Positions 6,441 through 12,187 of a stretch of DNA of 46,405 nt are shown one piece after another. Under the pieces are notes generated by a model. The model had not been told where the DNA came from. It worked only from the letters and a program-made list of their open reading frames with translations, and searched no databases. The DNA is from a virus (Duplodnaviria; Heunggongvirae; Uroviricota; Caudoviricetes). The DNA is taken from IMG/VR virus record IMGVR_UViG_2563366912_000002. One strand, given 5' to 3'. Both the position numbers and the translations under genes were made by a program. Numbering within the stretch: the first letter of the stretch is position 1; the number at the start of each line of letters is the position of its first letter.

Positions 6441-6731
6441 TTAGTGATTCAGGCCGTTACCGCGTCCGTCGAGAAAAACTTCCACGAGCAAATCACGGGT
6501 ATAAGTGCGCTCGATGCCGCGATGCAGATAAAGTCGTCCGCGTAAATTAGCTGATGCAGTCCAGGTACCATCTTTGCGTTTGACCAGCATTCCTGGCATG
6601 ACCGCACCGCGATTAACGGTTTGCGTTCCGTAATGTTGATGAACCATAAAAACTCCTGCCCGTAAGCTGGGCTGCTGAACATATAAAGACTTCTGCGCGT
6701 ATTCAGGCGGTGGATGGCCGCCGGTTGTCAT
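6441..6731 (-). CDS. Hypothetical protein, first long ORF downstream of the putative PL (kil/N position)
   Basis: 96-aa ORF between the immunity region and gam; no Arg-rich motif of its own, but see the finding on the in-frame upstream Arg-rich mini-ORF. Confidence 0.5.
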
Positions 6732-6924
6732 AACTAAGCCGCCTCGTTGAAGCGACTAAGGTATGAAATGTTGAGTTGATTTCAGCTGGTCACACCGACG
6801 TTCACGCGTCCGTTTCATCCCTCGCACTCCCCGAAGCCTGCTGAAATTCAAGCTGCGGATCTAAGCGGTCATCGCAACGGTGAATCAGGTGGTTGCCGTA
6901 TCGTTGTGTTGTTGCGATATGGTG

Positions 6925-6953
6925 ATAATAGCTATTGCTATTGGTGATATCAA
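6925..6953 (-). promoter_or_regulatory. Candidate leftward early promoter (PL-like) with operator-type repeats
   Basis: Minus strand reads TTGATA-17 nt-TATTAT; the spacer contains CAATAGCAATAGC repeats that recur in the cI-cro intergenic region. Confidence 0.4.
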
Positions 6954-7095
6954 TACTTATTGGTATTAATTGATGTGTTTTGATATTAAATGTTTGATAG
7001 CAAAAAGAATTAATTTTGTGACTTGCATCGCATAGCGATAACTGAAGCGAGGTTGTGGTGGTTTTTTGAACGGTATACGTGATGAGGGGAGGGGA

Positions 7096-7123
7096 CAAAA
7101 GAAAACCCGGCACGGTGGCCGGG
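7096..7123 (-). terminator. Rho-independent terminator downstream of the cI-orf153-stk operon
   Basis: Minus strand CCCGGCCACCGTGCCGGG hairpin followed by TTTTCTTTTGT. Confidence 0.55.
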
Positions 7124-7290
7124 CTAGATCTTAAAGTATTTATCTTTTAGAGATGTAGATGCAAAATTTTTTGCCTTTGAAAATTTTTTGTCATCAGAAG
7201 AGCTTATGAACTCATCTTTTTTGTAGGGAACCGCTAATGCTGCATCACGTCTGCGAGGCAGCTTACTTACTTCCTCGCACTTTTTCATGA

Positions 7291-8337
7291 TCAGTTATCC
7301 TTTAATAACCTATACAGTTTTGTAGGGGTACATCCTGAGGATATTGTTAAGTTCGTAGCACGCCTTTTCCGCCCACCATCGTATAAACGAAAACCAGTAG
7401 TAGACGAATTTTCTGCGTCAAAAACTATAGACAGTATAACGTCCCCAGACTTTTTTTGCCATTCATATGTGCCGTTAGTTGGTTTTGTCATCTGTAGACG
7501 CCAGTCAAGAACGCCATCACTTATAGCTGAGAGATCGTTTAGTACGTCTAGTACGGATTGATATCTTTCATTTGGATCTACATGAATGCATTTGTTTACT
7601 ATTGTTATCAATTTTTTATGTATGTGGGAAGGATACTCTTTTAATGGATAGGAGCCATTAATTATCGACTCTCTGAGTTGTTCAATCGTTCTAAATGCAG
7701 ATCTTTCTCTTTCAAAATTATCATATCCAACACACATTCTATATATGGTTAATCCTGCCTGATATATGTCATATGTGAAATTATAATCATTTGTTGATAA
7801 AGAAAAATATTCCGGTGGCACATGAAAATGATATCCAAACTCAGGCGCAGCTCTCGATTCCTCATTGACTAACTGAGACAATCCAAAGTCAGATAGCATG
7901 GCCTCATTTCTGTTTGATATCATGATGTTATTAGGTTTTATATCAAAATGCATAAGACCTTTTGAGTGTATATGATAAAGCCCACTTAAAAATTGAATAG
8001 AATACCGTATTATCTCCCTGCTCGTAAGATTAATCTTTTTTATTAATTGGTTTAGCGAACCATTATGATAAAATGGCATGGCTATATAGATATTGCTCTC
8101 ACATTGAGCAGCATACTGAACTTGCACAATATTTGGATGTGCATGTTTATAGAGAAGCCTTGCTTCATTAAAGTAGTCGTCGTGGTTAGTGTTTTCTTTT
8201 TTTTCTATTTCTTTAATCACCAAGTCATGAGCTAGGTGTCTGTCATGAGCCAGATATACTTTTGAAAAACAACCCTGTTCTTCTAGATCACGAATCCATT
8301 CGAATGCTACATCAGCTCTTTTGTATGGAGTCAGCAT
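7291..8337 (-). CDS. stk: Eukaryotic-like (Hanks-type) protein kinase, 348 aa, Stk-like
   Basis: Catalytic loop HFDIKPNNIM, DFG motif SDFGLS, beta3 lysine in VIKEIEKK; SD GGAGGT 8 nt upstream; start overlaps upstream ORF stop; AT-rich. Confidence 0.85.
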   Translation of the reverse strand: MLTPYKRADVAFEWIRDLEEQGCFSKVYLAHDRHLAHDLVIKEIEKKENTNHDDYFNEARLLYKHAHPNIVQVQYAAQCESNIYIAMPFYHNGSLNQLIKKINLTSREIIRYSIQFLSGLYHIHSKGLMHFDIKPNNIMISNRNEAMLSDFGLSQLVNEESRAAPEFGYHFHVPPEYFSLSTNDYNFTYDIYQAGLTIYRMCVGYDNFERERSAFRTIEQLRESIINGSYPLKEYPSHIHKKLITIVNKCIHVDPNERYQSVLDVLNDLSAISDGVLDWRLQMTKPTNGTYEWQKKSGDVILSIVFDAENSSTTGFRLYDGGRKRRATNLTISSGCTPTKLYRLLKDN

Positions 8338-8792
8338 CCCCTTACCTCCGCAGATAGTGCAGCCAAAACAGCTTCATTTGTTTCAGTTGTAAAACCAGAA
8401 TTATCGATTCCATTTATATTACGGTGTGACTTCAATATTTCTTTATACTCGATCTCTGTTAGGTTCAATGATGACTTCATACCAGATTTTCTAATGGTGT
8501 AATATCTTCTTACATCACTGCTTGAAAATGCTTCTTGAATAACAGCTTCTATATAAAGGCGGTCAATGCTAAGATTATCAGAGTTTGATTCAGTAACGCG
8601 TATAGCAGCTAATTCAACATTATATAAATTAAGAATGTCGAGGATGTTATTTCGCACATACTTTAATTTTTCTGGTGTGTCTAAGGTCGAAGGTATTTTA
8701 ATAACATCAACACATTTGAGTGCAGACTCATCAGTGCAATATACAACAAAAGATGTAACTTTGGGCGCCGCCCTAACACCTAGTATTCTCAT
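8331..8792 (-). CDS. Hypothetical protein (153 aa) between cI and the kinase
   Basis: Stop overlaps the kinase start (translational coupling); AT-rich like the kinase; no recognisable domain. Confidence 0.6.
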   Translation of the reverse strand: MRILGVRAAPKVTSFVVYCTDESALKCVDVIKIPSTLDTPEKLKYVRNNILDILNLYNVELAAIRVTESNSDNLSIDRLYIEAVIQEAFSSSDVRRYYTIRKSGMKSSLNLTEIEYKEILKSHRNINGIDNSGFTTETNEAVLAALSAEVRGC

Positions 8793-8872
8793 TTTTTATA
8801 TCCCATTTTAGAATCAGGCTGCGTTTCTGCAGCCTCTCTCATCACCCAAATGTCTAATCAGGCTATTATTGA

Positions 8873-9565
8873 TTATCCATGTTTCCTGTATGTTTGCGGC
8901 ATGCTCCCAATAACTTTCCCGAAGATAAACACCCGGTTCATCTCGTCTTTCTCGATTGGGTCCCACGGCGAGTAGCTCTTGTTATCAGAGATAACCAGCA
9001 GCTTATCCTTCATCATTTGAAGACGTTTTACATGGGCAGTGTCGTCGTACAGAAACGCATAGATGCCATCACCGTCGAAAGATTTAACAGTGATATCAAC
9101 GAACAGCAGATCACCTGGTTCGATCGTCCCTGACATGCTGTCACCGCGCACGTTAATAATGCGGATATTTTCCGCCTTCCTGCCATCGAACATGTGACGA
9201 GCATCGTCAAACGAGTACTCAACCGAGCGTAGAACTTCCACAAACTCACGGTTGATGACACCCGGTCCGGCACTGACTTCTATATCAAGAACGTCAATCT
9301 TGAAGTATTTTGAATGGCTGACAGCAGGCTTCCCTGATTGTTGACCGTCATTTCTCATCGGGCCTATGCCTGATGAGAGCCATTCTGTTCGAACACCCAA
9401 TGCATTAGCTATTTCAACAATTTTTGTTGAGCCGCGCGCGTTGCCGCTTGTCAGTCTCCAGATTGTGGGTTGAGCTACGCCAGACGCCTTTGCAAGAGCG
9501 CCTTGAGACATTCCAGATTGTTCCATCGCTAGGTTTAAGCGATCAGCAAGAGTTTCTTTTTTCAT
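8873..9565 (-). CDS. cI: CI-type prophage repressor, HTH_XRE N-domain plus S24 (LexA-like) autopeptidase C-domain
   Basis: HTH SQGALAKASGVAQPTIWRL; S24 motifs GDSMSGTIEPGDLLFVD and HVKRL; ATG at 9563..9565 sits ~7 nt after a TAAATT -10, so the mRNA is nearly leaderless as for lambda PRM. Confidence 0.85.
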   Translation of the reverse strand: MKKETLADRLNLAMEQSGMSQGALAKASGVAQPTIWRLTSGNARGSTKIVEIANALGVRTEWLSSGIGPMRNDGQQSGKPAVSHSKYFKIDVLDIEVSAGPGVINREFVEVLRSVEYSFDDARHMFDGRKAENIRIINVRGDSMSGTIEPGDLLFVDITVKSFDGDGIYAFLYDDTAHVKRLQMMKDKLLVISDNKSYSPWDPIEKDEMNRVFIFGKVIGSMPQTYRKHG

Positions 9566-9675
9566 AAGTTTTAATTTATACGCTTGCGTATTGATGGTCA
9601 AAACACGTTTTGCTATTGCTTGGATTAATACGCATTGCTATTATTCATTCATTGCAATACCAATAGGAATTGATA
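9566..9675. promoter_or_regulatory. Divergent immunity promoters and operators (OR/PRM/PR-like)
   Basis: Rightward TTGCTT(9616..9621)-17-TATTAT(9639..9644); leftward (minus) TTGACC(9596..9601)-17-TAAATT(9573..9578); palindrome ATACGCttGCGTAT at 9581..9594 and repeated TTGCTATTG / CAATAG elements. Confidence 0.5.
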
Positions 9676-9903
9676 ATGACAAATCAAACCATTCAACTCG
9701 CAATCAGTATTACAGGTAGTCAAAAACGACTGGCAGATCTATGCGGTGTAGCCCAACCCACAGTTTGGCGTTGGCTACACGGTGGCGGAATTGATGCCCG
9801 CTATGTAATGAAAATTGTCTCAGCCACTGGTGGAAAGATTAAACCAGCAGATATTCGTCCCGACCTCGCACCATTGTTTAACGCGAGTAATTCTGCCGCC
9901 TAA
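9676..9903 (+). CDS. cro: Cro-like HTH regulator (YdaS-type)
   Basis: HTH QKRLADLCGVAQPTVWRWLHGG; SD AGGA 7 nt upstream of ATG 9676; divergent from cI. Confidence 0.75.
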   Translation: MTNQTIQLAISITGSQKRLADLCGVAQPTVWRWLHGGGIDARYVMKIVSATGGKIKPADIRPDLAPLFNASNSAA

Positions 9904-9927
9904 ACTGCGGCGTTAACTGATAAGGCA

Positions 9928-10473
9928 ATGACTATGCAACCACTTACATACCAACAGACTAGCGGATTTAGCCCGACTGCGGTGATAAATCGTTCTCAAA
10001 CAAAACAGGCGCCAGGCCACGAAAAAATCCGTGATGCCGTTCGCGCCTGGTCGGCTGCAGATAATCAGGATGTTGTTGCCGCACTCATTGTGAATGAGTA
10101 TCGGGAGCAGGGCGGCGGCACCATCGATTTCCCTGATGATGTCAGCCGTGCACGCCAGAAGCTGTTCCGCTTCCTCGATAACAAATTCGATTCTGAAAAA
10201 TACCGAAATAACGTGCGTGAACTGACCCCGGCAATTCTGGCGGTACTACCGCTGGAATATCGCGGCCACCTGGTTGAGCAGGATAGCTACATGGCTCGGC
10301 TGGCTGAAATGGAAAAGGAACTCAGTGAGGCAAAACAGGCTGTCATTCTCAACGCACCACGCCACCAGAAACTGAAGGAGATGAGTGAAGGCATTGTGTC
10401 GATGTTTCGTGTGGACCCGGATTTGGCTGGTCCACTGATGGCGATGGTCACCACCATGCTGGGGGCAATATGA
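9928..10473 (+). CDS. YdaT-family protein (181 aa) in the cII position
   Basis: Occupies the cro-O interval where lambda has cII; sequence type recalled as YdaT-like (Rac ydaS-ydaT arrangement). Confidence 0.55.
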   Translation: MTMQPLTYQQTSGFSPTAVINRSQTKQAPGHEKIRDAVRAWSAADNQDVVAALIVNEYREQGGGTIDFPDDVSRARQKLFRFLDNKFDSEKYRNNVRELTPAILAVLPLEYRGHLVEQDSYMARLAEMEKELSEAKQAVILNAPRHQKLKEMSEGIVSMFRVDPDLAGPLMAMVTTMLGAI

Positions 10474-10559
10474 CAGGTTCGGAAATGGCGAAAGCCGGTC
10501 TGCGCGAACAGAACCGACTTTCAGGTGCAAATCGTAACACACTCATTGCGGGAGGAATT

Positions 10560-11489
10560 ATGGCAAACACTGCTGAGATATTCAATTTTCCAGTGCCGGA
10601 TGTGGCACAAAAGGAGCGGCGCGTGGCAGATCTCGACGATGGTTATACGCGCATTGCAAATGAGTTGCTGGAAGCTGTGATGCTGGCCGGATTAACACAG
10701 CACCAGCTTCTGGTCTTCCTGGCTGTCATGCGCAAAACATATGGCTTTAATAAAAGACTGGATTGGGTGAGCAACGAGCAACTTTCCGAATTGACCGGGA
10801 TATTGCCGCACAAGTGTTCTGCTGCAAAAAGCGTTCTGGTAAAGCGTGGGATTCTTATTCAGAGCGGGCGAAATATCGGCATTAATAATGTGGTCAGTGA
10901 ATGGTCAACATTACCCGAATCAGGTAAGAAAAATAAAGTTTACCTGAAAGAGGTAAATTTACCTGAATCAGGTAAGAAAAGTTTACCCAAATCAGGTAAA
11001 GGCGTTTACCCGAATCAGGTAAACACAAAAGACAAACTAACAAAAGACAATATAAAACCTTTTTCGTCCGAGAATTCTGGCGAATCCTCTGACCAGCCAG
11101 AAAACGACCTTCCTGTGGTGAAACCGGATGCTGCAATTCAGAGTGGCAGCAAGTGGGGGACAGCAGAAGACCTGACCGCCGCAGAGTGGATGTTTGACAT
11201 GGTGAAGACCATCGCGCCCTCAGCCAGAAAACCGAATTTTGCAGGGTGGGCTAACGATATCCGCCTGATGCGTGAACGTGACGGACGTAACCACCGCGAC
11301 ATGTGCGTGCTGTTCCGCTGGGCATGCCAGGACAACTTCTGGTCCGGTAACGTGCTGAGTCCGGCCAAACTCCGCGACAAGTGGACCCAACTCGAAATCA
11401 ACCGTAACAAGCAACAGGCTGGCGTGACAACCGGAAAATCAAAACTCGACCTGACAAACACTGACTGGATTTACGGGGTGGATTTATGA
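10560..11489 (+). CDS. O: Replication initiator O (lambda O-like N-terminal iteron-binding domain)
   Basis: MANTAEIFNFPVP…RRVADLDDGYTRIANELLEA…LAVMRKTYGFNK aligns with the lambda O N-terminus; SD GGAGG 4-5 nt upstream of ATG 10560; iterons inside the gene. Confidence 0.85.
   Translation: MANTAEIFNFPVPDVAQKERRVADLDDGYTRIANELLEAVMLAGLTQHQLLVFLAVMRKTYGFNKRLDWVSNEQLSELTGILPHKCSAAKSVLVKRGILIQSGRNIGINNVVSEWSTLPESGKKNKVYLKEVNLPESGKKSLPKSGKGVYPNQVNTKDKLTKDNIKPFSSENSGESSDQPENDLPVVKPDAAIQSGSKWGTAEDLTAAEWMFDMVKTIAPSARKPNFAGWANDIRLMRERDGRNHRDMCVLFRWACQDNFWSGNVLSPAKLRDKWTQLEINRNKQQAGVTTGKSKLDLTNTDWIYGVDL
10911..11066 (+). repeat. Origin of replication: four to five 18-19-bp iterons (TTTACCYGAATCAGGTAAR) followed by an AT-rich segment
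   Basis: Copies at ~10911, 10958, 10982 and 11004 plus a degenerate copy at ~10939; each is internally palindromic; followed by ACAAAAGACAAACTAACAAAAGACAATATAAAACC. Confidence 0.7.
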
Positions 11490-12187
11490 AAAACATCGCC
11501 GCACAGATGGTTAACTTTGACCGTGAGCAGATGCGCCGGATCGCCAACAACATGCCGGAACAGTACGACGAAAAGCCGCAGGTACAGCAGGTAGCGCAGA
11601 TCATCAACGGTGTGTTCAGCCAGTTACTGGCAACTTTCCCGGCGAGCCTGGCTAACCGTGACCAGAATGAACTGAACGAAATCCGCCGCCAGTGGGTGCT
11701 GGCTTTTCGGGAAAACGGGATCACCACAATGGAACAGGTTAACGCTGGAATGCGCGTAGCCCGTCGGCAGAATCGACCATTCCTGCCATCACCCGGGCAG
11801 TTTGTCGCCTGGTGCCGGGAAGAAGCATCCGTTACCGCCGGGCTGCCAAACGCCAGCGAGCTGGTTGATATGGTTTACGAGTATTGCCGGAAGCGCGGGC
11901 TGTATCCGGATGCAGAGTCTTATCCGTGGAAATCAAACGCGCACTACTGGCTGGTTACCAACCTGTATCAGAACATGCGGGCCAATGCGTTGACTGACGC
12001 GGAATTACGGCGCAAGGCTGCCGATGAACTGTCCTGTATGTCCGCACGAATTAACCGTGGTGAGGCTATACCTGAACCAGTAAAACAACTTCCTGTCATG
12101 GGCGGTAGACCTCTAAATCGTGCACAGGCTCTGGCGAAGATCGCAGAAATCAAAGCTAAGTTCGGACTGAAAGGAGCAAGAGCATGA
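11486..12187 (+). CDS. P: Replication protein P (DnaB helicase loader), 233 aa
   Basis: Near-identical to lambda P as recalled (MKNIAAQMVNFDREQMRRIANNMPEQYDEKPQVQQVAQIINGVF…). Confidence 0.95.
   Translation: MKNIAAQMVNFDREQMRRIANNMPEQYDEKPQVQQVAQIINGVFSQLLATFPASLANRDQNELNEIRRQWVLAFRENGITTMEQVNAGMRVARRQNRPFLPSPGQFVAWCREEASVTAGLPNASELVDMVYEYCRKRGLYPDAESYPWKSNAHYWLVTNLYQNMRANALTDAELRRKAADELSCMSARINRGEAIPEPVKQLPVMGGRPLNRAQALAKIAEIKAKFGLKGARA

Follow-up and report, generated by a model that had tools for sequence, protein, structure and literature searches.

The window analyzed here is a 46,405 nucleotide (nt) stretch of viral DNA, IMG/VR record IMGVR_UViG_2563366912_000002. Downstream of a cI-type repressor gene it carries a Hanks-type protein kinase gene, the counterpart of stk of phage 933W, preceded by an open reading frame (ORF) of 153 amino acids (aa). 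The question raised by this locus is whether these genes form a phage exclusion module and what the neighbors of the kinase contribute to it. The locus is probably the Stk abortive-infection cassette of 933W, which would have recombined as a unit behind a different cI gene in a lambdoid prophage at the tRNA-Arg/DLP12 site, and which would include accessory regulators of the kinase. As judged from sequence comparison, the cassette is a conserved set of three genes present across bacterial phyla, encoding a predicted RuvC-fold protein, a kinase whose C-terminal domain is private to its family, and a basic protein of ~55 aa. The central finding, an Stk exclusion cassette, is already known for the 933W sequence, to which the cassette in the window is essentially identical. 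The window finding itself is ordinary, i.e. a 97%-identical allele of a characterized prophage defense gene.

The Stk cassette and its counterpart in 933W

Window positions 7098–8855 display 96.9% DNA identity over 1758 base pairs (bp) with positions 9911–11666 of 933W. Phage phi24B, Stx2-86 and many further Shiga toxin (Stx) phages give an equal DNA match, and Min27 also carries the cassette. The stretch shared with 933W consists only of the terminator, three ORFs and 63 leader bases, and is annotated in 933W as tM, L0081/p21, stk/p22 and L0083/p23. The genes, their order and strand, the terminator and the place in the cI operon are the same in both. Alignment with 933W Stk and its neighbors, the comparison proposed in the original prediction, shows identical residues at 337/348 positions of Stk (97%), 151/153 of the 153 aa protein (99%; termed the partner below) and 50/54 of the small ORF (93%). 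The kinship with 933W Stk exclusion that had been proposed there is confirmed by the DNA identity and by the function described for 933W in secondary sources (PMC3564112, PMC3681748).

These sources describe 933W Stk as cotranscribed with cI and as aborting HK97 infection (PMC3564112), and as activated by HK97 infection with little or no activity in uninfected lysogens (PMC3681748). Both cite Friedman et al. 2011 for a prophage-encoded tyrosine kinase responsible for abortive exclusion of HK97. Tyrosine autophosphorylation and a trigger by an HK97 product come solely from the literature on 933W. The stk gene is under pRM control and is expressed in stable lysogeny (PMC3430580). A 933W lysogen also excludes lambda ~10^6-fold, and hybrids with the 21, 434 or P22 immunity regions escape (PMC6989128). 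That report does not ascribe the exclusion of lambda to Stk; it may be that the cassette acts against lambda as well as HK97.

The Pfam Pkinase domain matches residues 21–260 of the window kinase (E-value = 1.2e-46), and the complete Hanks motifs noted earlier from the sequence are indeed present. In 35 homologues, with identities down to 39%, the invariant residues are K42 (in VIKEI), E58, H130, D132, K134 and N137 (in HFDIKPNN), D150 and F151 (in DFG), P175, E176, D190 and R258, and G152 of the DFG motif is kept in at least 90%. Also invariant are Y169 of the activation loop, which is plausible as the autophosphorylation site, and W279 and W293 in the C-terminal region. The window Stk carries all of the conserved catalytic residues, and none of its 11 differences from 933W Stk is at an invariant position. 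The kinase family gives 536 matches at E ≤ 1e-20; in the best 120 of these, proteins that are complete have lengths of 337–353 aa. PADLOC profiles matching the kinase domain include PD-T4-6 (1.5e-36) and mad6 (8e-49). In viral contigs L084, L087, L088 and L090 and in Pseudoalteromonas (L011) the kinase is frameshifted or interrupted while the partner is intact and the cassettes are otherwise near-identical. Either sequencing errors or repeated inactivation of a kinase that carries a cost would account for these broken genes.

ORF coordinates, junctions and GC contents were re-derived from the window sequence (Table 1). Three ORFs are translationally coupled behind a cI-type repressor gene and are closed by an intrinsic terminator. 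The kinase ATG overlaps the stop codon of the partner (ATGCTGA), with a GAGG/AGGGG ribosome-binding site 5′ of the kinase start, and the 54 aa ORF begins 2 bases past the kinase stop codon (TGA-tc-ATG). Its TAG codon abuts the terminator hairpin, which has a GC-rich stem of 8 bp followed by a U-tract. The hairpin fold has a free energy of −15.9 kcal/mol (z = −3.75 vs shuffles); it is also called by a terminator scan, and tM is annotated at the homologous 933W site. The repressor gene ends 80 nt 5′ of the partner ORF on the same strand and displays Peptidase_S24 (1.5e-18) and HTH_3 (1.5e-06) matches; the RefSeq annotation at matching coordinates is an XRE family regulator. The GC content is 0.33–0.40 over the three ORFs vs ~0.50–0.52 in the flanks.

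The original prediction described two AT-rich, translationally coupled genes downstream of cI on the same strand, ending at a terminator in the slot where lambda carries rexA-rexB. The two ORFs, their overlap, their base composition and their place behind the repressor all stand. The terminator is present as well, however it does not directly follow the kinase, as the 54 aa ORF between them had been missed.

Table 1. Features of the cI operon and the Stk cassette (window coordinates)
Feature	Position	Strand	Description
Partner ORF, 153 aa	8331..8792	-	RuvC-fold protein (predicted); 933W L0083/p23; phi24B 'res'/P2
Stk, 348 aa	7291..8337	-	Hanks-type kinase (residues ~20–270) and family-specific beta-rich C-terminal domain of ~80 aa
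Small ORF, 54 aa	7124..7288	-	Strongly basic; 933W L0081; third conserved cassette gene
cI-type repressor	8873..9565 (alternative extent to 9601)	-	HTH_3 and Peptidase_S24; first operon gene; context, outside the mobile cassette
Mobile cassette block	7098..8855		Leader, three ORFs and terminator; common to 933W
Intrinsic terminator of cI operon	7096..7125	-	Hairpin and U-tract; 933W tM
Spacer hairpin	8817..8834	-	6–7 bp, GGCUGC-AGAAAC-GCAGCC, no U-tract

Homology to 933W ends at 8855, short of the repressor gene, and the window lacks the DUF3024 ORF found between cI and L0083 in 933W. To all appearances the block is a classic moron unit which has moved between immunity regions. Unlike the 933W cassette, the window copy is found behind a repressor of other immunity with a YdaS/YdaT-type cro/cII region, and its prophage is located at the tRNA-Arg/DLP12 site and is not an Stx phage; the Stk allele differs by eleven substitutions. 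The prophage adjoins tRNA-Arg and intD and carries emrE, ybcK, rusA and quuD, which places it at the DLP12 site. E. coli UR21/11-869 has a 100% match over 7000–9950. At an identity of at least 95% the cassette is present in 225 of 5426 complete E. coli genomes (~4%), of which 28 match at least 80% of 7000–9950, i.e. the cassette together with this repressor region. Of the 226 copies counted in the complete E. coli genomes, two are carried by plasmids and not by the chromosome. Between the window and 933W, the ratio of nonsynonymous to synonymous substitution rates is lowest for the partner (0.08), followed by Stk (0.21) and the small ORF (0.32, from seven differences only), and by this measure all three cassette genes are under purifying selection.

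The 933W DUF3024 ORF (L001, 4763..5104) encodes ~113 aa and lies between the repressor and the partner. Proteus penneri (L002, 5555..5893) has an ORF of equal size in the same slot. The phi24B homologue of the DUF3024 ORF (P3) is also expressed in lysogens (PMC3342100). The DUF3024 ORF may be an optional fourth cassette gene or a separate moron.

A RuvC-fold protein upstream of the kinase

The partner had been described as lacking any recognizable domain. This does not hold for its fold. The AlphaFold model, based on 33 homologues, has a predicted local distance difference test score of 91.5 and displays a complete RuvC/RNase H-like fold, which is seen only by structure comparison. PHROG 3875 and some PGAP records already label the protein as RuvC-like or RuvC family. 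The Pfam PF02075 score, at 13.6 bits, is below the 22.2 cut-off (E = 0.062), and a PDB profile search with the partner gave chance matches only, with no RuvC among them. No PADLOC or NCBIfam model matches the partner or the small ORF beyond chance level.

The Pfam alignment (partner positions 3–65 with profile positions 1–64) agrees with hhalign alignments to four RuvC sequences drawn from the PDB. These place ILGVR on ILGID and AAI-R on FAI-E, thus D7 of RuvC corresponds to R7 of the partner and E66 corresponds to R65. Residues were counted in a set of 126 representatives, any two of which are less than 50% identical. Arg occupies position 7 in 125 of these, and position 65 always holds Arg or Lys. 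G5 and R47 are also found in every representative, R78, E82 and E87 in 125, E68 in 124, and position 140 (E140) is Glu or Asp in 123. The equivalent of RuvC D138 (position 137) is variable but mostly acidic, and D141 is replaced by Glu (E140). The catalytic acidic tetrad of RuvC (D7, E66, D138 and D141) is therefore not preserved in the partner. Mutagenesis of RuvC has established that D7 and E66 are required for catalysis.

The partner family is mildly acidic, with a median isoelectric point (pI) of 5.9 vs 9.6 for E. coli RuvC. Identity with the RuvC resolvase is only 12%–15%, and the partner differs from it also in being acidic instead of basic and always paired with a kinase. With invariant Arg/Lys at the D7 and E66 positions and a mildly acidic character, the partner does not appear to be a resolvase. 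It is probably a RuvC-fold pseudo-enzyme, i.e. a non-catalytic pseudo-resolvase with a conserved, repurposed pocket. The idea that it senses Holliday junctions was downgraded in view of the mildly acidic character of the family.

The same residues bear on an alternative in which the RuvC-fold protein, with a rearranged active site, is a killing effector, and the kinase senses the phage and switches this nuclease on by phosphorylation. Nucleases are common among defense effectors, and the complete fold, the PHROG and PGAP names, the invariant E68, E82, E87 and E140 and the mostly acidic positions 41 and 137 are in keeping with such a function. However the replacement of the D7 and E66 equivalents by Arg/Lys in essentially all members, the Pfam score under the cut-off and a median pI unlike that of the DNA-binding RuvC all make a kinase-controlled nuclease unlikely. 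In addition, secondary sources tie the 933W phenotype to the kinase's own activity (PMC3681748, PMC3564112). Among the three alternatives weighed here, this is nevertheless the most credible, followed by a toxin-antitoxin or addiction module and then by chance adjacency of the genes.

Linkage of the three genes across phyla

A genomic scan with one genome per species identified partner homologues at 39 loci, which belong to Gamma-, Beta- and Alphaproteobacteria, Bacteroidota, Clostridia and one acidobacterial metagenome-assembled genome. In all 39 an Stk homologue (34%–56% identity) is located immediately downstream on the same strand; one of these kinases is frameshifted. Where the ORF caller could place the starts, the spacing of the partner and kinase genes ranges from overlaps (1, 4 or 8 nt) to gaps no longer than 9 nt. 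Among viral contigs found via the kinase, 78 of 80 have the partner directly upstream. In one of the two exceptions the contig itself begins with the start of the kinase; in the other the kinase is 5′-truncated, with only 520 bases upstream. The expectation that the 153 aa ORF would be conserved beside the kinase in related prophages is thus borne out well beyond them, and chance adjacency of the two genes was rejected on these linkage statistics.

The partner family comprises 446 clusters (50% identity) at E ≤ 1e-3. Among the best 150 of the 446 the match covers ~150 residues, and nearly all are stand-alone proteins of ~150–175 aa, with few fragments and a few proteins of up to 243 aa. In a distant representative (E = 6e-22) the partner again precedes a Pkinase gene and overlaps it by 4 bases, beside a BilD-like gene. 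A distant pair from soil metagenomes (L131 and L132, 386..1699) is found directly downstream of a gene with a BilD_N domain (ubiquitin-like Bil defense). The BilD_N neighbor suggests a defense-island context in soil metagenomes.

In Klebsiella and Proteus the cassette is found behind repressors of differing types, and the prophages that carry it also differ in their replication modules. Neighbors in distant taxa include restriction-modification methylases, AAA_15/AAA_21 ATPases, integrases, transposases and housekeeping genes. With diverse repressors upstream and such varied neighbors, the cassette is, as read from gene context, an autonomous mobile unit and not a fixture of lambdoid phages.

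A third gene follows the kinase. In 37 of 38 loci the start of a same-strand ORF of 45–80 aa falls at −45 to +30 relative to the kinase stop codon, and in the 38th it lies at +89; as a control, such a follower is found for 25 of 191 (13%) other long ORFs in the same loci. The products are uniformly basic, with a median pI of 10.1 and a net charge of +7.5, and the small basic protein is probably disordered. The 54 aa ORF of the window matches PHROG 4063 at 3.4e-38. The small ORFs begin with MK(K/I), have an Arg at approximately position 12–17 and display clade-specific C-terminal motifs, i.e. GYFxWP, FIDxS, HYIxV and KYFKI. A graded enteric series ties the window ORF to more distant ones via RRxxAxAxPY. 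A related pattern, R...P(Y/F), is seen again in Bacteroidota, Clostridia and Acidobacteriota, in 23 of 50 sequences vs 4.5 ± 1.9 in shuffles, the pattern having been chosen post hoc and the 50 sequences being related.

The partner has been seen in lysogens of phi24B as a 17.1-kDa protein, described as "similar to p23 from 933W" and detected by two-dimensional polyacrylamide gel electrophoresis and matrix-assisted laser desorption/ionization (PMC3342100). By reverse transcription quantitative PCR it was one of only two genes restricted to stable lysogens; the MASCOT score and the analysis of variance for these data were not significant (PMC3342100).

These data can be set against the simplest alternative, that of unrelated neighbors, in which the 153 aa ORF is an ordinary phage recombination resolvase that happens to lie beside stk and the 54 aa ORF is a chance frame. 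The RuvC database names and the presence of exo, bet, gam and rusA nearby in the prophage would fit an ordinary resolvase, however its catalytic residues are replaced, and the phi24B homologue is expressed in lysogens and not in the lytic cycle (PMC3342100). The partner and kinase genes adjoin in 39/39 and 78/80 loci across phyla, the stop codon of one overlapping the start of the other, and a small ORF is present in 37/38 loci vs 13% of controls, which renders chance association highly improbable.

Proposed silencing and release of the kinase

The silencing of Stk and the sensing of infection call for explanation, and the two strictly co-inherited proteins are obvious candidates for both. In the preferred reading, an Stk abortive-infection cassette with accessory regulators, the cassette would be transcribed with cI in the lysogen as far as tM. 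The RuvC-fold protein may serve the kinase as a regulatory subunit or sensor, and the small basic protein may act as a second regulator, possibly an inhibitor or pseudosubstrate. Both would keep the kinase silent until a phage cue frees it, and the private C-terminal domain could provide the docking place for them. Activation may proceed via phosphorylation of the invariant activation-loop Tyr169. Phosphorylation of host proteins would follow, with cell death ahead of phage release. How the two accessory proteins regulate the kinase is the part that we infer.

A further step can be proposed only tentatively. Stk could be the catalytic subunit in an immune system of three components that is widespread but uncatalogued, and in which a dead RuvC-fold protein senses a phage trigger protein or DNA intermediate and the ~55 aa basic protein, with its Arg...Pro-Tyr/Phe pattern, serves as a pseudosubstrate brake. 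A three-gene system with a pseudo-RuvC partner is not in PADLOC v2, where only the kinase domain finds a match. Literature searches gave nothing relevant on a defense system combining a RuvC-like protein with a kinase, and no description of accessory proteins as parts of the system, the primary 933W Stk papers being outside the reach of these searches. A 2026 defense review lists Stk2 as the only kinase defense. If the accessory proteins were required, 933W Stk would be redefined as a three-gene system that could be added to defense catalogues.

Several points weigh against the preferred reading. The partner keeps the invariant E68, E82, E87 and E140, with positions 41 and 137 mostly Glu, and a non-canonical catalytic site is possible. 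Among the best 150 of the 446 partner representatives there is no fusion with the kinase, i.e. no direct sign of physical contact. The 54 aa ORF is without annotation in the source genome. A hidden Markov model built from the non-enteric small ORFs scores the enteric ones no better than shuffled controls; it is position and the post hoc motif that suggest homology of the small ORFs across all clades. The function of the window Stk is carried over from a characterized 933W protein that differs from it at 11 residues, albeit none of them invariant. Should stk alone be sufficient for HK97 exclusion, this would argue against an essential role of the partner.

The quiescence of the kinase also lends itself to another explanation, a toxin-antitoxin or addiction module in which Stk is the toxin and the basic or the RuvC-fold protein is a labile antitoxin. 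Here stabilization of the prophage or island would be primary, and exclusion would be a by-product of host shut-off. The little or no activity of Stk reported in uninfected lysogens (PMC3681748) agrees with this, as do the tight coupling of three genes with a small, probably disordered basic protein and the occurrence of the cassette outside prophages, by integrases, transposases and other defense genes. Against it, 933W Stk is reported to be activated specifically by HK97 infection (PMC3681748 and PMC3564112), Pfam shows no DNA-binding antitoxin-type domain in either accessory protein, and the consistent place behind enteric prophage repressors suits superinfection defense. An addiction module is thus improbable, somewhat more so than a kinase-controlled nuclease. 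The two views overlap, since many abortive-infection systems resemble toxin-antitoxin modules.

The abortive-infection cassette of the preferred reading has partial likenesses in known systems. Lambda RexA/RexB occupy the same slot 3′ of cI, are cotranscribed with it in the lysogen and have a terminator at the end, and they follow the same logic of a dormant multi-gene abortive-infection module that is set off by a superinfecting phage. The rexAB-like position noted in the original prediction is therefore shared, however there is no homology to RexA or RexB: Pfam, PADLOC and NCBIfam gave kinase families for the kinase and chance-level matches for the other ORFs. In the Stk cassette a protein kinase is the effector; RexB is described as a membrane ion channel. 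Staphylococcal Stk2 and E. coli PD-T4-6 also use a Hanks-type kinase domain for abortive infection, and Stk2 is activated by the phage protein PacK (PMC13276650). These are described as single-gene systems. The window kinase, in contrast, has a private C-terminal domain and two partner genes and does not fit the description of a stand-alone kinase, with the partner in 39/39 and 78/80 loci and the small ORF in 37/38. Taken as a whole, the interpretation from which this analysis started is partly supported, and its core reading, transferred by homology, was already in the literature for 933W.

A spacer hairpin is located inside the 80-nt gap between cI and the partner. The fold of 8785..8875 has a minimum free energy of −19.5 kcal/mol (z = −2.8). 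The hairpin is possibly an mRNA processing, stability or attenuation element, and it may determine how strongly the cassette is expressed relative to cI. It sits within the block shared with 933W, where homology begins at 8855. In phi24B the genes 3′ of cI are reported to be far more abundant as transcripts than cI (PMC3342100).

Divergent genes at 9670..10473, in the cro and cII positions, encode a YdaS-type helix-turn-helix protein (1e-14) and a YdaT-domain protein (2.4e-29). The identical order of repressor, YdaS and YdaT precedes the Stk cassette in Klebsiella prophages (L041–L045). The region between the terminator and kil/gam/bet, 6650..7100, displays no N-type antiterminator gene, whereas 933W has N and nutL there. 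The sole ORF in this region, at 6802..7113 on the minus strand, encodes 103 aa and has no Pfam match. A promoter-like sequence, TTGATA-17-TATTAT, is found at 6953..6925 on the minus strand and could be pL.

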